Assembly: GCA_017453125.1 (NCBI GenBank)
Contig: JAFTKS010000012.1
Location: forward strand, 117,238 to 181,237
Length of the DNA stretch: 64,000 nucleotides
Reading direction: 5' to 3'
Origin: Clostridia bacterium
Lineage (GTDB): Bacteria > Bacillota > Clostridia > Christensenellales > UBA1242
Of the stretch, positions 47,436 to 60,744 are shown one piece after another. The notes beneath the pieces were generated by a model. It did no database searches. It had not been told where the DNA came from and was given only the letters and a program-made list of their open reading frames with translations. Position 1 is the first letter of the stretch; each line of letters opens with the position of its first letter. The translations under genes and the position numbers were made by a program.

Positions 47436-48389
47436 ATGAAAAGAAATTTTTTACATTTTTTAAGCCAAGAAAATGCAATTTTAAATATCAATGGGCAAAG
47501 TATAGGTATTATTGACCAGCAACTATCACCACAAATCGATATAATTAGCAATACTCAAAGTTTCTTTGTTACATACGAACCTATTAGCGAAAAGCAACAA
47601 GCTATGCCTTATACATTTGTTTTAAACACACAAAACACACCTCAAAGCAATAACGAATATATCAAAATTATTCCATTCCCAAACAATCATTACGATATTA
47701 TAATGAATCCTTTTTATTATTATCAAATATCTCAATCTCAAATATTATTTAATGACACGATTGGAAAATTCTTCATCTCTATCACGTCTGACACAAGTTC
47801 ACATATAACAATCTATAGCGGAGCATCAATAGTATTCTCCCTCAATACTATTGCATTAATAGATGCCATAGTGAAACAAAAAAAAGATTATCTTATAATT
47901 GAAGGAATTATAGATTCAGACACATATCAATTAATTATTATTGATACAAATAATTTTTCAATTGTACATAATAATATTGCCCACTCAGTTGAAGAAGATA
48001 ATTATCACATCACCTCTTTCAAAAAACTTAACACTATTTGCAAACACGCTGAAATATGTACATTTGAGTTTGATAAAAAACAAAAAGATAAATACTATGT
48101 TTACGAAGACAAGTCTATAGACATTAATCCCGCTCTTATACCTCTAGCATTTTTGCAATGTATATCTATTGGAGACGAGGTAAAAGCAATGTCTTTTTTA
48201 TCCGACAACTTGAGTAATACAAACATAACACAATTACAAGGATATTTCGGAGAGATAAAGGACATATTTATAAATAGGCATAGTATTACTCCACATCGCC
48301 AAAACTATACTATCAACTCAACACGAATGAGGAATTATAATTTCATTATTGATAATCAGAAAATTACAGATATTGAGGAAGTGTTTTAA
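47436..48389 (+). CDS. hypothetical protein (317 aa)
   Basis: Long ORF with normal codon composition for this window; no motif recognised. Confidence 0.55.
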   Translation: MKRNFLHFLSQENAILNINGQSIGIIDQQLSPQIDIISNTQSFFVTYEPISEKQQAMPYTFVLNTQNTPQSNNEYIKIIPFPNNHYDIIMNPFYYYQISQSQILFNDTIGKFFISITSDTSSHITIYSGASIVFSLNTIALIDAIVKQKKDYLIIEGIIDSDTYQLIIIDTNNFSIVHNNIAHSVEEDNYHITSFKKLNTICKHAEICTFEFDKKQKDKYYVYEDKSIDINPALIPLAFLQCISIGDEVKAMSFLSDNLSNTNITQLQGYFGEIKDIFINRHSITPHRQNYTINSTRMRNYNFIIDNQKITDIEEVF

Positions 48390-48465: not shown

Positions 48466-49167
48466 GTGGACATATACCAAATAATTGCAATCATAGCAGT
48501 AGTAATATTATTATTTATTATCGTTGTGCTTACTAGTAGAACTAGGATTATAAAGACTTATAATAAATATATGAAGATAGACAATTATCATAACCTAACA
48601 GGAGAACAACTAGCATATGTTGCCAAGAAGTTCTTAGACTTACCAAACCTGAAATTTGCATTAACAAAACAAAAACTCGGCGACGCATATATTCCTAGTC
48701 AAAATGTAATGTTAATCAGCGAAGAGGTTTGCAAAACCGCATCTCTGGCATCTCTGACAATTGTGTCTCACGAGTTTGGACACGCTCTTCAACACAAACA
48801 AAATAACGTTCTATTTTATATAACTATGCTACTTGGGAAAATTACAAGAATCACAAATAGATTTATTACCCCACTTTTAATTGTCGGAACTGCTTTGTTT
48901 GCTTTTCAATACCCTGCACTAGAATCAGGTTACACAATTTTGATAATTGCTGGTTGTTTATTTTTAGCACACGTATTTCATAAAATAATCACTATTCCAC
49001 TTGAATATGATGCTAGCAGAAAAGCACTTAAATTTTTAAAAGAAAACAATTTGCTTTCCAGCAAAGAATTAAAGCGTGCAAAAAAGCTACTTGGAATTGC
49101 TGCACAAACCTACATTGCAGGACTTCTTGATAACATATTTATCTTTAATATAAAAAGGAAAAAATAA
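48466..49167 (+). CDS. membrane zinc metallopeptidase (Zn_peptidase_2 / YpfJ-unrelated neutral peptidase family), copy 1
   Basis: GTG start; N-terminal TM; HEFGHALQ zincin motif; C-terminal TMs and EYDAS. Confidence 0.75.
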   Translation: MDIYQIIAIIAVVILLFIIVVLTSRTRIIKTYNKYMKIDNYHNLTGEQLAYVAKKFLDLPNLKFALTKQKLGDAYIPSQNVMLISEEVCKTASLASLTIVSHEFGHALQHKQNNVLFYITMLLGKITRITNRFITPLLIVGTALFAFQYPALESGYTILIIAGCLFLAHVFHKIITIPLEYDASRKALKFLKENNLLSSKELKRAKKLLGIAAQTYIAGLLDNIFIFNIKRKK

Positions 49168-49871
49168 TGTATTTTAATTATTATATGATGGGAATTATTG
49201 TTCTTCCCGGTATATTGCTGGCAATATACGCTCAATCAAAAGTGAATTTAACCTTTCACAAATATAGCAATATAGGATCGCATTTTGGTAAAACAGCTAG
49301 CGAAATTGCAAGATTATTTCTTGACCAAGCGGGCTTATATCATATTCAAGTTGTTAGAACAAGAGGCAGTTTGACCGACCATTATAATCATAGAAAAAAT
49401 ATAATTGCACTTAGCGAAGATGTCTATGATAGCACATCGATTTCTGCAATTGGCGTTGCTTGCCATGAGGTTGGCCACGCCCTTCAATACAAATCAAACT
49501 ATATTCCAATTAAATTTAGAAATGTTATTATTCCTGTATGTAATTTTGCAAACAATTTATTATGGATAACAATTGTCCTAGGAGTACTTTTCTACTATAC
49601 AAATTTAGGAAATATATTTTTATGGATTGGAATATCTGTATTTGTTCTATCGGTTCTTTTGAACCTTGTTACCCTACCCGTTGAATACAACGCTAGTAGA
49701 AGAGCAGTAATCCTACTTTCAAAAAGTGAAATATTCAACCCAGAAGAAATTTCTGCTACAAAAGAAGTCTTGAATTCCGCTGCCCTTACCTATGTTGCAA
49801 GTTTCATTATTTCAGTATTAAACCTACTTAGACTTTTGATAGTTTTATTTGGAAACAGAAGAAATGATTAA
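49167..49871 (+). CDS. membrane zinc metallopeptidase, copy 2 (tandem paralog)
   Basis: HEVGHALQ, VEYNASRRA. Same architecture as copy 1; its start overlaps the copy 1 stop. Confidence 0.75.
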   Translation: MYFNYYMMGIIVLPGILLAIYAQSKVNLTFHKYSNIGSHFGKTASEIARLFLDQAGLYHIQVVRTRGSLTDHYNHRKNIIALSEDVYDSTSISAIGVACHEVGHALQYKSNYIPIKFRNVIIPVCNFANNLLWITIVLGVLFYYTNLGNIFLWIGISVFVLSVLLNLVTLPVEYNASRRAVILLSKSEIFNPEEISATKEVLNSAALTYVASFIISVLNLLRLLIVLFGNRRND

Positions 49872-49910
49872 AAAAATTATAAGGCAAAATATTCTGCCTT
49901 ATAATTTTTT
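49870..49910. terminator. bidirectional terminator
   Basis: AATTATAAGGCA-loop-TGCCTTATAATT stem flanked by A and T runs, between convergent genes. Confidence 0.75.
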
Positions 49911-50229
49911 AAGGTTCTATATTTGTTATACAAACACCCGCATTCTTTCCATTCATAACACTTATCCCATTTGCCTTGCAAAGTCCATCTTTATTAAACA
50001 AACACTCTGCACCACACTCTATCGACATACTTCTATTATGTCTAAACGGGTGAATATCTGGTGCAGTTTCAAACATATCTCTGCTAATATCCTGTCTTTG
50101 CTCCTCAACTATTTTATTAGACTTTTCAAAAGTAGCACATTCACAATTTCTAGCTACCTTTATCCCCTTACTAATACAAGCACATCTATCATTATACTTA
50201 CAATCCATTTTTTTGCATTTCAAATCCAT
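49909..50229 (-). CDS. DUF1540-like Cys-rich protein
   Basis: Start moved to ATG 50229 (AGAGGTGA RBS). Duplicated C..C....C.C pattern MDLKCKKMDCKYNDRCACIS and IECGAECLFNKDGLCKA. Confidence 0.6.
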   Translation of the reverse strand: MDLKCKKMDCKYNDRCACISKGIKVARNCECATFEKSNKIVEEQRQDISRDMFETAPDIHPFRHNRSMSIECGAECLFNKDGLCKANGISVMNGKNAGVCITNIEP

Positions 50230-50312
50230 ATTATTCACCTCTATAATATTTTTGTACAATTTACAATCAAAATATTCATACTTAATCGATTATAATTACA
50301 ATAACTAAATAG

Positions 50313-51795: not shown

Positions 51796-51957
51796 AATAT
51801 TGTCCTCCATTAGTTATTTGAAAACAAAACACCTTATGCCCTAATAGTAGCATAAGGTGACCAAATTCATAATCAACTAATTCACTACCTCGGCAAGTGC
51901 TTTCGCGTTATGACAAATGTCTCTTGCTGTCTTAGGTGCATCAATATTCTATTTTCG
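51796..51957 (-). promoter_or_regulatory. L10 (rplJ) leader with intrinsic attenuator
   Basis: Leader between the consensus promoter and rplJ. Minus strand has ...CCUAAGACAGCAAGAG...CGCGAAAGCACUUGCCGAGGUAG... and a CACCTTATGC/GCATAAGGTG hairpin (51830-51859) followed by TTTTGTTTT. Resembles the Firmicute L10 leader as I remember it. Confidence 0.6.
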
Positions 51958-52055: not shown

Positions 52056-53630
52056 TTAGTTGTCGATTTCAACAAATTCATCATATGTAATTACTTTGTC
52101 AAATGCCTTCTTGTCTGTAATTTTGATAATTCTATTACATACAGTTTGCATAAGTTCTTGGTCGTGTGATGTAAGAAGAAGATTTCCTTTGTAATTTATA
52201 AGTCCTTTGTTTAGAGCAGTAATACTTTCAAGATCCAAGTGGTTTGTTGGTTCATCAAATATAAGCAAGTTTCCAGATGTTAACATCATCTTAGCAAGCA
52301 TACATCTAACCTTCTCCCCTCCACTTATAACTTTTGCCTTTTTCATTCCCTCTTCTCCCGAGAATAACATTCTTCCCAACCAAGAACGAACGAATGTTTG
52401 TTCCTTTTCTTTTGAGAATTGAGCAAGCCAATCTACAAGAGACAAATCACATCCATCAAAGAAAGAATTGAAGTTTTGAGGAAGATAAGAATATGTTATT
52501 GTTTTTCCCCACTTTATGCTACCTGTATAATCTTTATCTTCACCTGCAAGTATATTAAATAGTGCACTAAGAGTTGTCGTCTTATCACTTACAAAACCAA
52601 TCTTATCGCCTTTGTTTACAGTAAAAGAAACATTTTCAAAAACACCTTTTTTAGTTAAATTCTCAACAATTAAAATATCGTTACCCGCTTCTCTTTCCAT
52701 AGCAAAATTGATGTATGGATATTTTCTATTACTTGGCTTAATATCGTTAAGAGTAAGTTTTTCAAGTTCTTTCTTTCTGCTAGTTGCCTGTCTACTTTTA
52801 CTTGCATTAGCAGAGAACCTAGCAATAAACTCTTGCAATTCTTTTGCCCTAGCTTCCATCTTTTTATTCTCTTCTTTTTGTTGACGAAGAAGCAATTGGC
52901 TTGTCTCATACCAGAAATCGTAGTTTCCTAGATATATATTGATTTTACCATAGTCTACATCGCAAATATGAGTACAAACATTGTTTAAAAAGTGTCTATT
53001 GTGCGAAACTATTATAAGAATATTTTCAAAATTAATAAGATAATCCTCAAGCCATTTAACCGTTTTTATATCAAGGTTATTTGTAGGCTCGTCAAGTATC
53101 AAGATATCAGGATTTCCAAATAGCGCTTGAGCAAGAAGAACTTTTACCTTAATAGGCGCATCAAGAGTTCCCATCATTGCATAATGCAAAGATGGATCTA
53201 CACCAATTCCATTTAGAAGTGTACTAGCATCACTCTCTGCTTCCCAACCACCAAGTTCTGCAAATTCGCCCTCAAGTTCAGCTGCTCGCATTCCGTCTTC
53301 TTCTGTGAAATCAGGTTTAGCATACAACTCATCTTTTAATTTCATTATCTCTATAAGTCTTTTATGTCCTTGAAGAACCGTATCCATTACTGTGTAATCG
53401 TTAAAAGCTTCTTGGTTCTGATTAAGAACAGACATTCTCTCCCCTGGAGACACGACAACCTCGCCCTTTTGTGGTTGTAATGCGCCAGAAAGAACTTTTA
53501 GGAATGTAGACTTTCCTGCACCATTAGCACCAATTACACCATAGCAATTACCTTTTGTAAACTTCAAATTAACTTCATCAAATAATTTATTACTACCGAA
53601 TTGCACACAAACATTATTTACTTGAATCAT
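52056..53630 (-). CDS. ABC-F family ATPase, YbiT-like subfamily
   Basis: Start moved to ATG 53630 (AAAGGTGG RBS). Colinear by eye with E. coli YbiT (QFGSNKLF...GANGAGKSTF..., SRFSANASKSRQATSR linker). Two Walker A/B plus LSGGE cassettes, no TM. Confidence 0.88.
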   Translation of the reverse strand: MIQVNNVCVQFGSNKLFDEVNLKFTKGNCYGVIGANGAGKSTFLKVLSGALQPQKGEVVVSPGERMSVLNQNQEAFNDYTVMDTVLQGHKRLIEIMKLKDELYAKPDFTEEDGMRAAELEGEFAELGGWEAESDASTLLNGIGVDPSLHYAMMGTLDAPIKVKVLLAQALFGNPDILILDEPTNNLDIKTVKWLEDYLINFENILIIVSHNRHFLNNVCTHICDVDYGKINIYLGNYDFWYETSQLLLRQQKEENKKMEARAKELQEFIARFSANASKSRQATSRKKELEKLTLNDIKPSNRKYPYINFAMEREAGNDILIVENLTKKGVFENVSFTVNKGDKIGFVSDKTTTLSALFNILAGEDKDYTGSIKWGKTITYSYLPQNFNSFFDGCDLSLVDWLAQFSKEKEQTFVRSWLGRMLFSGEEGMKKAKVISGGEKVRCMLAKMMLTSGNLLIFDEPTNHLDLESITALNKGLINYKGNLLLTSHDQELMQTVCNRIIKITDKKAFDKVITYDEFVEIDN

Positions 53631-53691
53631 AAAAACCACCTTTACAAGAAAAAAACAATTCATTCAAGAAATTGTTCCTTTTATTATTTAT

Positions 53692-53720
53692 AGTTTACCG
53701 AAACAATGTAAAATTGTCAA
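53692..53720 (-). promoter_or_regulatory. promoter of the ABC-F gene
   Basis: Minus strand TTGACA (53720-53715), 17 nt, TAAACT (53697-53692). Confidence 0.5.
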
Positions 53721-53769
53721 GACAAAGCCCGATATATCGGATTTTTTATTAAATTAACTTAATACTTCA

Positions 53770-53798
53770 TTGATTATCATAAATTTTTGTGTTATACT
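53770..53798 (+). promoter_or_regulatory. extended -10 promoter of orphan paralog 1
   Basis: TTGATT, 17 nt (ending TGT), TATACT. Confidence 0.55.
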
Positions 53799-53901
53799 AA
53801 ATATAGAGTTTATGATTGCATTATTAATAATAAACATATATTTTTTAATTATGCAGTTACAACTTAAATTAAAATAAAAATAAATTAAGGAACAAAAATC
53901 A

Positions 53902-54438
53902 ATGAACCAAGCACAGAAAACAACACAAGAAAATAGAGATTTGGCACAAAGAATATATACTAAATTTCCATCTTTTAAAACAAACAAAGATGGTTTAGTA
54001 AACATTTACTCCTTTATCAATGCTATAGAAGAATTACGTCATAATACAGTTATGTATGTAGCAAAAAAGGAATTACACGATTGCTTAATAAAAGATTCTA
54101 AATTATATGACATATTATTAAACCTTCATAAACAATGGTCAGCAAACCATCATATCGATACAAAAATTAGCTTTGAACTGGGCCGACAATTGTATGATGA
54201 TCCTACAGAGGCAAAATTTGGAGATGAACATCATTTGGTTATAGACCAGACTAACCCTAAAGCACAACAATTTGAAAAAGAATTGACTCAAACTCTAAAT
54301 TTCGCAATTGACATTAATAAAAACCCAGAAATCGCTCAAATTGTAAAAAACTCAATTGAAAAAGAGTATCAAAGACAACGTCGCATTGAAGAGGCGGACA
54401 CTATTAGCGAAAATAGCAGATTTGGCGGTCAAAATTAA
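53902..54438 (+). CDS. orphan protein, paralog 1 of 3 (178 aa)
   Basis: No known motif. Shares NPKAQQFEKELTQTLNFAIDINKNPE with paralog 3 (DPMYAQYVNVLTKIEEFAIDPEVNN). Own promoter and terminator. Confidence 0.65.
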   Translation: MNQAQKTTQENRDLAQRIYTKFPSFKTNKDGLVNIYSFINAIEELRHNTVMYVAKKELHDCLIKDSKLYDILLNLHKQWSANHHIDTKISFELGRQLYDDPTEAKFGDEHHLVIDQTNPKAQQFEKELTQTLNFAIDINKNPEIAQIVKNSIEKEYQRQRRIEEADTISENSRFGGQN

Positions 54439-54445
54439 TAACACA

Positions 54446-54478
54446 AGAATATCTGAATTCCTCAGATATTCTTTTTTT
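54446..54478 (+). terminator. intrinsic terminator after paralog 1
   Basis: AGAATATCTGA-ATTCC-TCAGATATTCT stem plus TTTTTT. Confidence 0.75.
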
Positions 54479-54528
54479 GACTACAAAACCCCTAAACAAA
54501 GGCATAAAACAAAATTTTTAAATACCTA

Positions 54529-54557
54529 TTGAAATTTAAAGAAAAATATGTTATACT
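54529..54557 (+). promoter_or_regulatory. extended -10 promoter of orphan paralog 2
   Basis: TTGAAA, 17 nt (ending TGT), TATACT. Confidence 0.6.
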
Positions 54558-54583
54558 AAGCATATATTCAAAGGGGGATTGGT

Positions 54584-55261
54584 ATGAATATGAAAACACA
54601 AAAAGAGAAAAATTTAGAAATTATTAATGAATATAATAAAAATAGAAAACCAAATACATCTGTTTTTGCTAGAGTTCCAGATATTGTAAAATATGCTGAG
54701 AGACAAAATGCAGTATATTCACTGCTTGAAAATGGAAACCCTATTAATTTTGAAGATGTACATTTATTAAGTACAGAAGTTAAATACCCTACTAAAAAAG
54801 TTTACGATAAGAAAACAAACAAACTAATTATGCAACCTGTTGATCAATCAAAACTTTTAGGATTCCTTTCTTCTATTATTGAGACTAATACAACAGAAGG
54901 TTCTGCACCAGAATATGTTCTATATCCAGAGACACCTGTTTACAAACAATTAAATCAACTTCTACATGCATTTAAAGCAGAACCAGTAGTTCAAAGTTCT
55001 CGTTTTATGAAAGAAGACAAACTTGTTCACGCTGCTAGACTTGGAGATATCGCTGGTCAAGCAGACCCTACTCTTATTATGGTAGAATCAGGAAGTTCAG
55101 AGCACAAAATGCTAACTGCACTACTTGAAAAAACAATTTCAAGTTGTCCATCTATTAAGATTGACTATAAAAAAAGAGATACTTTGAATAATGAAGAAAA
55201 TACAAATGAAGAACTTGATGACAATTACGAAACAATTTTAGAAATTGTTAAAGGCCATTAA
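54584..55261 (+). CDS. orphan protein, paralog 2 of 3 (225 aa)
   Basis: VDQSKLLGFLSSIIETNTTEGS...YPETPVYKQLNQLLHAFKAEP aligns with paralog 3; RBS AAGGGGGA. Confidence 0.7.
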   Translation: MNMKTQKEKNLEIINEYNKNRKPNTSVFARVPDIVKYAERQNAVYSLLENGNPINFEDVHLLSTEVKYPTKKVYDKKTNKLIMQPVDQSKLLGFLSSIIETNTTEGSAPEYVLYPETPVYKQLNQLLHAFKAEPVVQSSRFMKEDKLVHAARLGDIAGQADPTLIMVESGSSEHKMLTALLEKTISSCPSIKIDYKKRDTLNNEENTNEELDDNYETILEIVKGH

Positions 55262-55268
55262 GATACAA

Positions 55269-55296
55269 AGTACATCAATTTTGATGTACTTTTTTA
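55269..55296 (+). terminator. intrinsic terminator after paralog 2
   Basis: AGTACATCAA-TT-TTGATGTACT stem plus TTTTT. Confidence 0.75.
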
Positions 55297-55486
55297 TTTT
55301 TATAACCGCAACTCTCTGTATAAATATTCATAATCTAAAATTACTTTGTCTACTTAACTTTAAACTATTTGAGTATTTAAACACAAAGAAATATTAATTT
55401 AAACAAATATAAAATGTATTTTCATAAAGTTTGCCACATAATGATACATTTTTTAGCAAAATATAGTAATTTTTTAATAACCCCTA

Positions 55487-55515
55487 TTGTAATTTAAATT
55501 TTAATATGATATAAT
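55487..55515 (+). promoter_or_regulatory. extended -10 promoter of orphan paralog 3
   Basis: TTGTAA, 17 nt (ending TGA), TATAAT. Confidence 0.6.
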
Positions 55516-55546
55516 ATAAATATTAAAAACAAAGGGGATTGGAAAA

Positions 55547-56158
55547 ATGAAAAATAATGTACAAAAATATTTAGAGAATAAAAACACTAAAGACAATGCA
55601 CTTTTTATGGGAGACCCAAACGATATTGCTAGAGCATCACTAGAAGACGCATATGCAAAACTAGCAGCAGGAAAGAAAATTAGTCGTACTCAAGTTCCTC
55701 AATTAAGAATTCCTGTAAAGCCAGACAATGTCTTTGTTCCAAAGACTACACTTAAAGGCGAAATTTATGGTTTTACTATCGACAAAGCAGCCTACTTGGA
55801 ATTTTTAACTCAAACACTAATTGCTACAGTAAACCCAGAAAGCAATTATTCACAAAGAGTATATAAAGGAACACAATTTTACAAAGAATGTATGACTCTT
55901 AAAAAGGCTTTAACTGAAGGTCCTGCATATCTTGAACCAAATGGAGAAGTTTTCGGAACTCATATTAGAACAAAAGGAGGATTTTCTAATGCTCCTATAG
56001 CATTATCAAAAGAAGATCCTATGTACGCTCAATATGTTAATGTTCTAACAAAGATTGAAGAGTTTGCAATTGATCCAGAAGTCAACAATATCACAAACCC
56101 ACAACAAGATTTTGCTGAAATGTACAAAGAAATTCTAGATGAAATGAGAACCAATTAA
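55547..56158 (+). CDS. orphan protein, paralog 3 of 3 (203 aa)
   Basis: IDKAAYLEFLTQTLIATVNPES...YKGTQFYKECMTLKKALTEGP; RBS AAGGGGA. Confidence 0.7.
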   Translation: MKNNVQKYLENKNTKDNALFMGDPNDIARASLEDAYAKLAAGKKISRTQVPQLRIPVKPDNVFVPKTTLKGEIYGFTIDKAAYLEFLTQTLIATVNPESNYSQRVYKGTQFYKECMTLKKALTEGPAYLEPNGEVFGTHIRTKGGFSNAPIALSKEDPMYAQYVNVLTKIEEFAIDPEVNNITNPQQDFAEMYKEILDEMRTN

Positions 56159-56164
56159 AAAGTA

Positions 56165-56192
56165 AAGACACATTTTACAATGTGTCTTTTTT
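56165..56192 (+). terminator. intrinsic terminator after paralog 3
   Basis: AAGACACATT-TTAC-AATGTGTCTT stem plus TTTT. Confidence 0.75.
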
Positions 56193-56228
56193 ATTTTTAT
56201 AACCCCAAGATTGTTTGTTTTTACAAAC

Positions 56229-56256
56229 AAAAAAACGACAATAAATGTCGTTTTTT
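56229..56256 (-). terminator. intrinsic terminator after rplA
   Basis: Minus strand ACGACA-TTTAT-TGTCGT stem followed by TTTTTTT. Confidence 0.65.
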
Positions 56257-56937
56257 TTAGTATTGAACTCTAATTCCAGGACCCATTGTGCTAGAAACAG
56301 AAACAGATTTGATATAAGTTCCTTTTGCAGCTGCTGGTTTAGCTTTGATCAAAGCTTCCATAACAGTTGTCAAGTTCTCATTTAATTTTTCAGCACCGAA
56401 AGAAACTTTACCGATCATAACGTGAACAATATTGTTCTTGTCAAGTCTGTACTCAACTTTACCAGCTTTAATTTCAGCAATTGCTTTTGCTAAATCTGTA
56501 GTAACAGTTCCGCTCTTTGGATTTGGCATAAGACCCTTTGGACCAAGAACCTTAGCAATTCTACCAATAACAGGCATCATATCTGGTGTTGTTACACAGA
56601 CATCGAATCCAAACCAGTTCTGAGACATAATCTTTGTAACCATATCTTCAGCACCTACGAAATCTGCTCCTGCTTTAGTTGCGATATCAGCATTATCACC
56701 TTTTGCGAATACCAAAATCTTCTTTGTTTTACCAGTTCCATGAGGAAGTACAACAACTCCTCTAACTTGTTGATCAGCGTTTCTTCCGTCAACGCCAAGT
56801 TTTACGTGAAGTTCAACTGTTTCGTCAAACTTTGCACTTGCAGTTTTTACTGCAAGATCTAGAGCTTCTGCAACAGAATATTGAGTAGACTTGTCTACCA
56901 ATTTTGCAGCCTCTGTGTATCTCTTACCTTTCTTCAT
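56257..56937 (-). CDS. rplA: 50S ribosomal protein L1
   Basis: [20 protein letters not shown]...[14 protein letters not shown]... Confidence 0.96.
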
Positions 56938-57532: not shown

Positions 57533-58222
57533 TTAATCAAATTTTCTAACTTGGTCAAGATTCAAATCAACTGGAGTATCTCTTCCAAACATCTCAACCA
57601 TAACTTTACATTTAAGGTTCTCTTTATCAACTGAGATAACTGTTCCAACAAAGCCATTTAATGCTCCGTCAAGAACCTCAACCTTATCATTCTCTGCAAT
57701 AGATACATCAACAACGGTATTTTTCTCAAGTCTCATTTTTCTAATTTCTTCTTCTGTAAGATGAAGAGGACGACCCTTAGGTCCAACGAAACCTGTAATG
57801 CCACGAGTACGAGTAACGGCGTGCCAAATATCGTCACCATAAATCATCTTTACCATAATATAACCTGGCATAACTTTTCTGGAAACTATTTTTTGTTTGC
57901 CGTTTTTCTCTTCAACAACATCTTCCATAGGAATAACAATGTCAAAAATTCTTTCTTGCAAATTATATTTTTCTTTTACAATTTCTAGATTCTCTTTTGC
58001 AACATTTTCATATCCTGAGAAAGTATGCAACACATACCATTTAGCATTCTCAATTGCTTCATCTACTTTAACTTCTGTAGTATCGTCAATTAAATTTTCC
58101 TTTGTAGAAGTAGTCTGTACAGCATCAATGGCTTGTTCACTAATACTTGCTTCCTGAACTTCTTCTACAGGATTCTCAATTTGCTCAACAGCTACAGAAT
58201 CCAACATTTCTTCGTTTTCCAT
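57533..58222 (-). CDS. nusG: transcription termination/antitermination factor NusG with acidic N-terminal extension
   Basis: Start moved to ATG 58222 (AAGGAGA RBS). NGN domain starts at KWYVLHTFSGYENV after about 60 acidic residues; C-terminal KOW GFVGTVISVD. Confidence 0.9.
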   Translation of the reverse strand: MENEEMLDSVAVEQIENPVEEVQEASISEQAIDAVQTTSTKENLIDDTTEVKVDEAIENAKWYVLHTFSGYENVAKENLEIVKEKYNLQERIFDIVIPMEDVVEEKNGKQKIVSRKVMPGYIMVKMIYGDDIWHAVTRTRGITGFVGPKGRPLHLTEEEIRKMRLEKNTVVDVSIAENDKVEVLDGALNGFVGTVISVDKENLKCKVMVEMFGRDTPVDLNLDQVRKFD

Positions 58223-58246
58223 CGAAACGCTCTCCTTGTTCAAATT

Positions 58247-59135: not shown

Positions 59136-60638
59136 TCATCTTTCCATTTCGTCCATTTGCATTTCACGCATTTGCTGTTCTCTTGCGAGTTGTTCACGTG
59201 TTTTTGCATTCATAATATCCATTTGTTTATCTTTCCTCTCTCGTTCTCTTGCAAGAACACTATAAACAGAATCCGACCTAGTTGTTCCTTGATAATTATC
59301 TTCCATTACAGAAGCTTCTTTGAATTTTTCTAGTCGTTTTATTCTATCTTTTAGTGAAGTAACGGCAATTTCCCCCTCTGCTTCAGGAGTATCAATAGCC
59401 TGACTTCTAGACGTATCAACCACTTTGCTAGATGTTTGAGGCTGGCTCGTTTGATGATTGTCTTTAAACACACTATAAAACGACTCTTGAGCAACAGATT
59501 CTCTAGGTTGTTGTGTTTGTTCAGGTTCTTTTTTCTTGTCAAGCATATCTTTTATATACTCGCTCTCTTTGCTCATTTTTTGTTCCTGTGTTGAGTTTTG
59601 AGATGTCTGTTGTGATTCTTCTTTTTTCTGCTGTGGCTGTTCAGATTCTTTTGTTTTTGGTGATTTGACAGCATTTACTATTTGTTCAACACTAGATTTA
59701 CTTTCATACACTTGCTCTTCTTCGTGAGCATTTTTCTCATCAAGAAGTTCTTCAACTTTCTCCCTATCAGACTTCTCAAGCATATTAAGAGCCTTAGATT
59801 CATACCTATCATTTAACTTGTTTACACTATCAACAAAAGTCTCTAAAGAAGCGGAAATTTCTTTGTTATATGCTTGTTCTTGTTGTTCAAATTCTGGTTT
59901 CGTTCCAGAAACTTCCTCTATACATTTATCTAATAATTCATTAAGAGTTTTGTAATTTTTCTCTTGAAGAAAGACATTCTCAATAAGACTATGTTGCTTA
60001 TTAAAATTATCTAAAATGGTTCTAGCAAAAGCACTATCTAATTTTGTTAAAGCTGAAATTCTAGCAGTAAAATACTTACCATACGCATCTAAAAACTTTT
60101 CATCTAAAAGTTTATCGAGAAGCAATGAATATTGTTTTTTTGCAAGAATAAAACTATCTTCATTTTCCAAATCATCAATTAATTTTCTCTCTCGTCCCTC
60201 ATCATCAGAATCATCATCTTCATCAAGAGATATATTAAACTTGGAATATGTTGCCTCTATAAAATTATCAACTTCTTCATTAAAATCTTCAAGTTTTGTT
60301 TTGATTGTATTTTGTAGATATCCATTAATTTTCTCTACATCTTCAAGCAAAAACAATGTAGCGGACGCACTTTTTCCATTATGAGTTTTTGAATCAAACA
60401 ATAATTCAAAAACCAATTCTCCATAACCAAGAAGATTTCCAACGCAGAATACAGAATTTCCAAAAGACGTTTTCTTAACTTTATCGAGTTTAACTAGTTC
60501 TTCTACAATTTGAGATGCAATAGTATAATTACCGTCATCATCATAAGTGCCAAGAAGATTATTCTTGATAACATCAATTTTCTCAGTCACAAAGTTGTCT
60601 TGAGTTATTTTTCTTGTTAACTTTCCATTCTTAGGCAT
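59136..60638 (-). CDS. orphan acidic/Gln-rich protein (about 500 aa)
   Basis: The track start is a TTG without RBS; ATG 60638 is preferred. N-terminal half globular, C-terminal half E/Q/K/S low complexity; no motif recognised. Confidence 0.6.
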   Translation of the reverse strand: MPKNGKLTRKITQDNFVTEKIDVIKNNLLGTYDDDGNYTIASQIVEELVKLDKVKKTSFGNSVFCVGNLLGYGELVFELLFDSKTHNGKSASATLFLLEDVEKINGYLQNTIKTKLEDFNEEVDNFIEATYSKFNISLDEDDDSDDEGRERKLIDDLENEDSFILAKKQYSLLLDKLLDEKFLDAYGKYFTARISALTKLDSAFARTILDNFNKQHSLIENVFLQEKNYKTLNELLDKCIEEVSGTKPEFEQQEQAYNKEISASLETFVDSVNKLNDRYESKALNMLEKSDREKVEELLDEKNAHEEEQVYESKSSVEQIVNAVKSPKTKESEQPQQKKEESQQTSQNSTQEQKMSKESEYIKDMLDKKKEPEQTQQPRESVAQESFYSVFKDNHQTSQPQTSSKVVDTSRSQAIDTPEAEGEIAVTSLKDRIKRLEKFKEASVMEDNYQGTTRSDSVYSVLARERERKDKQMDIMNAKTREQLAREQQMREMQMDEMER

Positions 60639-60744
60639 ACAGCACCCCACATATATTTTCAATAAAATAATAAAAACTTTCAAAATATATTAATTATTTA
60701 CAAATTAATTATAACATAGACCTTGAAAAATGAAAAATAAAATA

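Follow-up and report, generated by a model that had tools for sequence, protein, structure and literature searches.

What are three genes without recognisable relatives doing in the midst of ribosomal-protein operons, and are they related to one another? We have studied this question for a 64-kb stretch of contig JAFTKS010000012.1 (the whole 64,000 nucleotides analysed are called the window below). The host is an uncultured, Christensenellales-like Clostridia bacterium of the ruminant gut with a GC content of ~32%. The interval in question carries genes 1, 2 and 3, encoding the proteins P1, P2 and P3, which NCBI lists as hypothetical proteins IJW59_04000/04005/04010 of a metagenome-assembled genome (MAG) named 'Clostridia bacterium'. 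An initial annotation, made from the sequence of the window, described them as three mutually homologous genes of a possibly undescribed family, each with a strong promoter and terminator of its own, and found their position suggestive of a role in translation. From the analysis presented here we consider it fairly probable that genes 2 and 3 belong to a real ORFan family of very narrow distribution, encoding soluble and probably non-enzymatic proteins, that has been amplified in tandem, and that gene 1 is an unrelated orphan standing beside them.

Relationship between the three proteins

The open reading frames (ORFs) have the coordinates, strands and sizes originally assigned to them (Table 1). 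P2 and P3 are recognisably similar. BLASTP aligns them at 30% identity over 136 amino acids (aa) in the N-terminal part, with E = 0.003, and both pairs of P2-P3 peptides picked out in the initial annotation fall within this alignment. Over the full MAFFT alignment the identity is 25%, with a range of 24-30% across methods. The Smith-Waterman score is 76, compared with 33.6 ± 5.1 for shuffled sequences (z = 8.3), and 0 of 500 shuffles scored as well. These values point to a homology that is real but weak. The start of P2 that is homologous to those of P3 and of a third protein, P0004 (see below), is the ATG at 54590, giving the protein of 223 aa beginning MKTQ that is found in the NCBI annotation.

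Are there further copies? A hidden Markov model (HMM) of the family, run on six-frame translations, detected no additional copy or pseudogene in the window or in L002, the contig that carries P0004. Local alignments in the spacer at 55312-55486 were no better than those of shuffled sequences, giving no indication of a decayed third copy there, and comparison of the N-terminal with the C-terminal half by hhalign revealed no internal duplication in the family.

The claim of mutual homology thus stands for P2 and P3, but it fails for P1. BLASTP gave no alignment of P1 with P3 at E ≤ 100, and the alignment with P2 has E = 1.1. Comparison of P1 with the family profile using hhalign gave a probability of 0.6%, and the family HMM did not match P1 even at E ≤ 10. 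In Smith-Waterman comparisons with the family P1 has z = 1.2-2.0, with 28-59 of 500 shuffles scoring equally. The segment on which the relationship to P3 had been founded is indeed the best local alignment of the two, yet 28 of 500 shuffles reach its score. The promoter tells the same story. That of gene 1 matches the consensus at 9/12 positions, a level common in shuffles (19 sites found in the interval, against 15.8 expected), and its 24/41 identity to the promoter of module 2 is background, as 35 sites of the window match equally well. Protein similarity and promoter similarity are therefore both at chance, and we have rejected P1 as a third paralogue on all of these comparisons. Gene 1 is most likely an unrelated singleton orphan that happens to adjoin genes 2 and 3. 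Its product is predicted to be soluble and mostly helical, with an isoelectric point (pI) of 6.2, and its codon usage is ordinary.

A shared expression cassette

The promoter-like sites that had been placed before each gene are all present, each with a TG before the -10 element. As far as the sequence can show, a strong promoter is likely for modules 2 and 3 (10/12 each); the candidate of gene 1 is the weakest of the three, for the reasons given above. The top two sigma-70-type matches of the interval are those of P2 and P3, ~30 nucleotides (nt) before the start codons. The two modules have in common a T-tract, CTATTGnAATTTA at the -35 position, an extended -10 of the type TATGnTATAAT, a ribosome-binding site (RBS) containing CAAAGGGGATTGG, and a terminator tail. 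The TATGnTATAAT form corresponds to the TRTG extended -10 that is typical of Gram-positive sigma-A promoters.

The sharing of flanking sequence that had been noted is borne out by the three blocks: the 41-nt promoter is 76% identical between modules 2 and 3, the 12-nt RBS 92%, and the 23-nt terminator tail 22/23. The exact shared motifs occur in only these two places within the 64 kb. The Shine-Dalgarno (SD) consensus of the two modules, AA(A)GGGG(G)ATTGG, is unlike the AGGAG/GGAGG sites of other genes. The tail, CTTTTTTATTTTTATAACCsCAA at 55289-55311 and 56186-56208, is conserved to an extent that exceeds the needs of a U-run; a similar sequence (TTTTTTAATAACCCC, 55470-55484) lies directly 5′ to the P3 promoter, and the tail is absent at the L002 copy.

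Each of the three genes does have its own intrinsic terminator. No more than 6 nt separate each stop codon from a perfect hairpin of 11-12 bp and a U-run; the folding free energies (dG) are -11.4 to -13.7 kcal/mol, z ranges from -4.9 to -6.5, and 0 of 200 shuffles folded as well for any of the genes. There are 7 terminator-like sites in the interval, against 0.8 expected in shuffles. The stems of genes 2 and 3 differ in sequence, and both pair perfectly, i.e., the changes are compensatory.

The complete pattern (CTATTGnAATTTA ... TATGnTATAmT ... GGGGATTGG, followed by ATGAAAA) is present 5′ to P2, P3 and P0004. It was found nowhere else in the window or in 80 related loci. A search of JGI metagenomes with the cassette DNA pattern returned 14 matches that we ascribe to chance: half fall in GGGGATT repeat tracts, and no related ORF follows any of the 14. 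Thus by sequence the cassettes have the features of sigma-A promoters and intrinsic terminators, the promoter matches being 10/12 with TG for modules 2 and 3 and 11/12 with TG for the L002 copy. We conclude from these comparisons that genes 2 and 3 are evidently paralogues produced by tandem duplication of the whole expression cassette, in agreement with the duplication of entire modules proposed at the outset.

How strongly might such a cassette be expressed? The predicted leaders are ~20-30 nt long, leaving no room for an element of riboswitch size, and Rfam finds no regulatory element in them. Between the -35 and -10 elements there is no conserved operator. The codon adaptation index (CAI), with the ribosomal-protein and EF-Tu genes of the window as reference set, is 0.73 for P2, 0.66 for P3 and 0.56 for P1; most of the reference genes lie at 0.70-0.78 and most others at 0.47-0.60. 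In a leave-one-out calculation the log-odds values are +0.01 (P2), -0.05 (P3) and -0.19 (P1); the highly expressed set has +0.15 ± 0.08 and the remaining genes have -0.23 ± 0.14. This suggests that expression of P2 and P3 would be above average, without being extreme. Taking together the near-consensus sigma-A signals, the short leader, the lack of a conserved operator and the intermediate codon usage, we infer that the cassette is built for constitutive expression at an above-average to high level.

Table 1. Positions in the window of the three orphan genes, their putative expression signals and the adjoining features
Feature	Position	Strand	Description
L10 leader	51817-51954	-	Rfam RF00557, 67 bits; then rplJ, rplL
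ABC-F ATPase	52056-53663	-	NCBIfam PRK15064-type, E = 1e-184; upstream of P1
Candidate sigma-A promoter, gene 1	53770-53798	+	TTGATT-17-TATACT, TG-extended; weakest of the three
ORF P1 (gene 1)	53902-54438	+	178 aa
Intrinsic terminator, gene 1	54445-54480	+	12-bp stem, 5-nt loop, U-run; dG -13.7 kcal/mol, z -5.4
Cassette promoter, gene 2 (putative)	54525-54565	+	CCTATTGAAATTTAAAG...TATGTTATACT; -35 TTGAAA, 17-nt spacer, TG-extended -10; T-tract upstream
Promoter hexamers, gene 2	54529-54557	+	TTGAAA-17-TATACT, 10/12 + TG
Shine-Dalgarno block, gene 2	54571-54582	+	AAGGGGGATTGG, conserved
ORF P2 (gene 2)	54584-55261	+	225 aa from first ATG
Terminator, gene 2	55267-55311	+	11-bp stem and conserved tail CTTTTTTATTTTTATAACCGCAA; dG -12.3 kcal/mol, z -6.5
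Cassette promoter, gene 3 (putative)	55483-55523	+	CCTATTGTAATTTAAAT...TATGATATAAT; -35 TTGTAA, 17-nt spacer, TG-extended consensus -10; TTTTTTAATAACCCC upstream
Promoter hexamers, gene 3	55487-55515	+	TTGTAA-17-TATAAT, 10/12 + TG
Shine-Dalgarno block, gene 3	55531-55542	+	AAAGGGGATTGG, conserved
ORF P3 (gene 3)	55547-56158	+	203 aa
Terminator, gene 3	56164-56208	+	11-bp stem and same tail CTTTTTTATTTTTATAACCCCAA; dG -11.4 kcal/mol, z -4.9
rplA	56257-56937	-	downstream of P3; then rplK, nusG, secE

A single homologue in a second organism

We have searched for relatives of the family with an exhaustive HMMER profile scan of 1.84 billion cluster representatives, standing for about 15 billion proteins. 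Apart from P2 and P3 this found one protein, P0004 (221 aa, E = 2.7e-27). In word-indexed searches of 5.8 billion protein clusters the queries retrieved nothing but themselves. P0004 is encoded on L002, a 6.4-kb contig of ~32% GC that comes from a different run and a second uncultured bacterium. Its gene is flanked on one side by gatC/gatA and an ArsR-type regulator, and on the other by a class-I aminoacyl-tRNA synthetase gene (trpS) and a release-factor gene. It is thus a single-copy cassette at a site unrelated to the P2/P3 locus, with no neighbouring gene family in common. The genes of P1-P3 and P0004 (L002 3364-4029) all run in the opposite direction to the housekeeping genes that surround them.

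The protein identity of P2 and P0004 is 39%, and the shuffle z is 48 for this pair, and 5.1 for P3 with P0004. The similarity of P2, P3 and P0004 is statistically significant over most of their length; at 25-39% identity the three keep frame, length and hydrophobic core positions across two organisms. Upstream of the P0004 gene, AACTATTGAAATTTAT...TATGGTATAAT...CAAAGGGGATTGGAATTATGAAAACACAAAAAGA reproduces the -35 context, the extended -10 (11/12 with TG), the SD and the first codons as found in P2.

The signals are better conserved than the proteins, as had been noted for the window, and this is true of the L002 copy also. Promoter identity among the three cassettes is 27-31/41 nt, compared with a nucleotide identity of only 40-55% for most of the coding sequence (CDS). 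The module-2 promoter is 31/41 identical to that of module 3 and 30/41 to that of L002, and these are its best matches in the window; the L002 promoter is less similar to that of module 3 (27/41) than to one unrelated site of the window (28/41). Conservation of the promoter and SD extends to a second organism, and gene conversion cannot act between organisms; we therefore take the expression signals to be under purifying selection. Such selection would be indirect evidence of expression.

All other searches were negative. The curated libraries Pfam, NCBIfam, PHROGs and PADLOC gave nothing above noise for P1-P3 and P0004 (Leo1, E = 0.035; eS8, 0.074; PDC-S09, 0.008; PHROGs, E at least 0.007), and sequence searches of the PDB found nothing significant for the family or P1. 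With the family profile there were no relatives in a one-genome-per-species GTDB set, JGI metagenomes or IMG/VR, and P1 had no match in IMG/VR. A tblastn search with P1, P2, P3 and P0004 found no match in 50,697 phage records, and one with P2 none in 72,556 plasmid records. With no confident match to a known family and three members among the 1.84 billion representatives, P2, P3 and P0004 constitute, as far as sequence searches can define it, an undescribed and extremely narrowly distributed ORFan family.

Such a family resembles other bacterial ORFans, or taxonomically restricted genes, in having no homologue beyond a narrow lineage, in being AT-rich and ~200 aa long, in its annotation as 'hypothetical protein' and in its unsettled origin. 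It differs from them in several ways: it has three members in two organisms, its near-consensus cassette is fully conserved, its codons are better adapted than average, and it has been duplicated in tandem. These features lead us to regard it as an established, expressed gene rather than a proto-gene. Two reviews treat the origin of ORFans in general, by import, rapid divergence or de novo, as a matter of debate (PMC12315717; PMC13012023).

Properties of the proteins

P1-P3 have no transmembrane segment or signal peptide, as was stated in the initial annotation; their top Kyte-Doolittle windows of 19 residues score 0.34-0.99, below 1.0 in every case. The pI values are 5.6-6.2 for the three, P2 and P3 being slightly acidic (5.6-6.0). 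Where P2, P3 and P0004 are invariant, the residue is in most cases hydrophobic, aromatic, Pro or Gly; the few polar ones are K4, N24, K67, T117 and N202. Of the acidic residues only E12 and D87 are invariant, and no His, Cys or cluster of acidic residues is conserved. Because the invariant residues lack a polar set of the catalytic type, a non-enzymatic binding or structural role seems indicated, in which the protein would act stoichiometrically. The product of genes 2 and 3 would be a soluble cytoplasmic protein of ~200 aa, the surface of which probably evolves fast; the secondary structure in the low-confidence model is a mixed alpha/beta pattern.

Variation between strains

Contigs of the same species, each from its own sample, cover the locus in full (L001, L098) or in part (L097). 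All covered ORFs are intact, and the sequences are 99.9% identical. Of the ~21 variable sites in 19.4 kb, 8 fall in the 678-bp CDS of P2, where by our Poisson estimate ~0.7 would be expected, and they lead to 6 amino-acid changes (R21K, D33G, K36E, K72R, T78K and E116D). A further 5 variable sites lie at 54485-54510, just 5′ to the P2 promoter. P2 is represented by 6 distinct database sequences; P1 and P3 are invariant, with 1 each. The variation, seen in L001, L098 and a further contig, L099, spans window positions 54485-54931, i.e., the upstream region and CDS of P2. As the P2 sites are linked, import of one or two recombination tracts could account for them no less than diversifying selection could, and the balance of non-synonymous to synonymous changes is approximately neutral.

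L099, which stems from another study, is itself unusual. Positions 1-434 of its 954 nt match window positions 54531-54964 at 99.5%; beyond them the contig passes into a gene for an rsmG/gidB-like methyltransferase on the opposite strand. Either the contig is a chimera created by assembly, or it carries a P2 copy that has been truncated and relocated.

Genomic setting

The interval 53664-56256 holds the three genes as monocistronic units, all on the + strand and running counter to their neighbours. The setting among ribosomal-protein operons with an ABC-F gene is as it had been described. Between rplA and rplJ lie the ABC-F gene, which shares their strand, and the three orphan genes, which are on the other. 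Compared with the canonical secE-nusG-rplKA-rplJL order, rpmG-secE-nusG-rplK-rplA and L10 leader-rplJ-rplL are internally arranged as usual; the difference is that the normally short rplA-rplJ junction is split and that rplL is not followed by rpoBC. In place of rpoBC, rplI and addAB-like genes lie 3′ to rplL, which points to a local rearrangement of the classical order.

Almost all of the remaining genes of the window are on the - strand, and the GC skew of the + strand is negative. The three orphan genes therefore probably run counter to the direction of replication that the skew implies. Genes whose expression signals are strong do not usually have such a head-on orientation. The base composition of the interval is native-like. 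The only tRNAs of the window are at 2012-2168, and no integrase, toxin gene, tRNA or terminal repeats were found near the orphan genes or at the P0004 locus. A search for inverted repeats as borders of a mobile element around the interval gave only AT-rich background. The ABC-F and P1 genes diverge from AT-rich 5′ regions that resemble each other (53672-53697 and 53870-53895) and end in the same AAGGAACAA RBS; these form a 26-nt inverted repeat that is 81% complementary, and since other AT-rich repeats are comparable this may be chance.

Is the association with the ABC-F gene conserved? We collected 80 related ABC-F loci from GTDB (59-71% identity; flanks of at most 10 kb at either end). ABC-F relatives of up to ~70% identity are found in Christensenellales-like MAGs (Ca. 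Onthoplasma, Alloclostridium, Scatosoma and Coproplasma). Homologues of P1, P2, P3 or P0004 are absent from all 80 loci. In none does the ABC-F gene adjoin rplA, rplK or nusG, and rplJ-rplL lies near it in one (L027). The co-occurrence with the ABC-F gene or the rplA/rplJ junction that had been put forward for examination is thus absent from these loci. The arrangement of an ABC-F gene among ribosomal-protein operons is a local peculiarity of this lineage, and with neither the adjacency nor a homologue in any of the loci the suggested role in translation is unsupported.

Some other features of the window may be recorded. NusG (57533-58243, - strand) has an acidic N-terminal extension of ~67 aa, the NusG model starting at residue 68. 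Between rpmG/secE and tuf there is a family-less ORF (59136-60683, - strand) encoding an acidic, low-complexity protein of 515 aa. Two further family-less ORFs are found nearby, at 47436-48389 (+ strand, 317 aa) and 49909-50259 (- strand, 116 aa, Cys-rich). None of the 515-, 317- and 116-aa ORFs has an NCBIfam match, and the equivalent genes of L001 list no Pfam family. At 48466-49871 (+ strand) there are two neighbouring Zn_peptidase_2 (PF04298) paralogues of 233 and 234 aa, with a stop/start overlap of 1 base.

Interpretation

How might this locus have arisen? Its position would be accounted for if the gap that separates the rplKA operon from the unit of ABC-F, L10 leader and rplJL (53664-56256) had been filled in a lineage-specific manner. 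One cassette, comprising T-tract/UP-like region, -35, extended -10, leader, SD, ORF, terminator and tail, would then have been duplicated in tandem. Its place among translation genes would be an accident of local rearrangement, not a functional link.

Several points weigh against the picture of a tandem-amplified ORFan family beside an unrelated orphan. The descriptions 'strong promoter' and 'abundant protein' derive from consensus matches and a moderate codon-usage signal, and the codon usage of P2 and P3 is intermediate, not that of ribosomal-protein genes. The term 'non-enzymatic' follows solely from the lack of conserved polar residues in three sequences. The AlphaFold2 models, with predicted local distance difference test (pLDDT) scores of 47 (P2, with P3 as its alignment) and 53 (P1 alone), are unusable; Foldseek with the P2 model, at pLDDT 47, gave no match in the PDB at E ≤ 0.001. 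The singleton status of P1 is less secure, as its homologues were sought with the word-indexed tool alone and the exhaustive HMMER scan covered the P2/P3 family. At each of its two known loci the family has translation genes next to it, which could have meaning even at n = 2. Lastly, the family may have reached its two hosts by vertical descent with relocation or by horizontal transfer.

Might the genes instead be involved in conflict? Tandem arrays of paralogous immunity and other conflict proteins exist in Firmicutes and Bacteroidota, and P2 and P3 share with them the adjacency of diverged, soluble, non-enzymatic-looking paralogues and the variation between strains. A fast-evolving binding protein, of the immunity, inhibitor or decoy type and serving in conflict with phages or between bacteria, might then have been imported from a mobile element or bacterium that has not been sampled, and amplified. 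The occurrence in only two host organisms, at different loci and oriented against the neighbours in both, would fit this, as would the low identity (~25-30%) of adjacent copies and the concentration of strain polymorphism in P2 (8 of ~21 sites, 6 alleles). Import from unsampled sources is, moreover, given as a major origin of bacterial ORFans in recent reviews (PMC13012023; PMC12315717). Against this, the P2/P3 pair differs from the known arrays in having no toxin or secretion genes and no Imm/SUKH or PADLOC match, in the promoter and terminator that each gene has of its own, and in comprising two copies only. For an immunity protein of a polymorphic toxin or a toxin-antitoxin system one looks in vain for a cognate toxin; each gene is monocistronic, and no Pfam or PADLOC match rises above noise. 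For cargo of a phage or mobile element, there is no homologue in the phage, plasmid, PHROGs or IMG/VR sets, and the surroundings contain no meaningful inverted repeats or terminal repeats, no integrase and no tRNA. In base composition and codon usage the genes look native, or better adapted than the average gene, and the P2 polymorphisms, with their nearly neutral balance, may reflect one or two imported tracts. We therefore regard an origin in conflict or import as unlikely, while deserving to be kept in mind.

A bolder proposal is that the P2/P3/P0004 cassette is a portable, self-sufficient unit (promoter, SD, ORF and terminator) for high expression of an abundant, fast-evolving cytoplasmic protein with a new fold, moving between housekeeping loci of Christensenellales-like gut bacteria, multiplying in place, and serving a lineage-specific purpose in conflict or in modulating the translation machinery next to which it inserts. 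This is speculative, and we would give it rather little weight.

We find it more doubtful still that the proteins are abundant, lineage-specific accessory factors acting with the ribosome, the ABC-F protein or other components of translation. The expression signals and codon usage do suggest abundance, and the loci lie between rplA and ABC-F/rplJ in one organism and between gatCA and an aminoacyl-tRNA synthetase plus release factor in the other. However, by our estimate about one-tenth of the genes in such genomes are translation-related, and with two loci and genes that common we take the proximity to be coincidence and not evidence. The orphan genes form transcription units of their own on the opposite strand, each with its terminator, no family of neighbouring genes is common to the two loci, and the ABC-F relatives neither carry a homologue nor keep the adjacency. 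A pI of 5.6-6.0 and the lack of an RNA-binding or other known domain also speak against this role, and a core partner of translation would not be expected in only two organisms.

Could the ORFs be non-functional, either chance reading frames or decaying relics with promoter- and terminator-like sequences in AT-rich DNA? The lack of homologues for P1 and near-lack for P2 and P3, the low-confidence structure predictions, and the promoter-like hexamers, which are no commoner than in shuffles of the interval, are what one would expect of such sequences. Yet ~8% of codons in random sequence with this composition would be stops by our estimate, giving 178-225 open codons from any one start a probability of ~4e-7 or less. 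P2, P3 and P0004 retain frame and length, promoter and SD are conserved across organisms, perfect hairpins with compensatory stem changes directly follow the stop codons in excess of expectation, and the ORFs are intact in all strains seen. We consider this reading very improbable.

One weak lead came from structure databases. A profile of the three sequences matched residues 31-91 of I-CreI, a LAGLIDADG homing endonuclease; the E values are 0.047 (best engineered variant), 0.45 (a chain named as wild type) and up to 0.55, and hhalign of the family with I-CreI gave a probability of 27%. Many engineered variants of I-CreI are present in the PDB, so that a best-of-many score is inflated. The single sequences P2, P3 and P0004 did not match I-CreI, no other LAGLIDADG protein was matched, and the Pfam LAGLIDADG models matched no member at E ≤ 10. 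There is no LAGLIDADG-like helix with a conserved terminal acidic residue, the relevant columns being E/P/P, G/E/N and S/S/N, and no two-domain internal repeat in the family. The stretch corresponding to the beta-hairpin of I-CreI is predicted as helical in the poor P2 model. Homing-endonuclease genes are self-contained and insert between conserved genes, and the stand-alone cassettes between conserved housekeeping genes at two different loci recall this, but with no motif or catalytic acidic residue and with Pfam, single-sequence and repeat comparisons all negative we treat the match as chance, and a degenerate free-standing LAGLIDADG-type relative, decayed or domesticated, is scarcely credible.

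What, then, does a tandem-amplified ORFan family in this position signify? It offers no functional lead and does not bear on a major open question. If the genes are expressed as their signals suggest, this would be an abundant protein whose relatives are confined to two uncultured gut bacteria. It would provide a neat case, on a small scale, of an established ORFan family whose expression cassette is more constrained than the protein, and a test case for the amplification and relocation of such genes. The cassette also provides a compact unit of near-consensus promoter, SD and terminator from a Christensenellales-like lineage for which there are few genetic tools.

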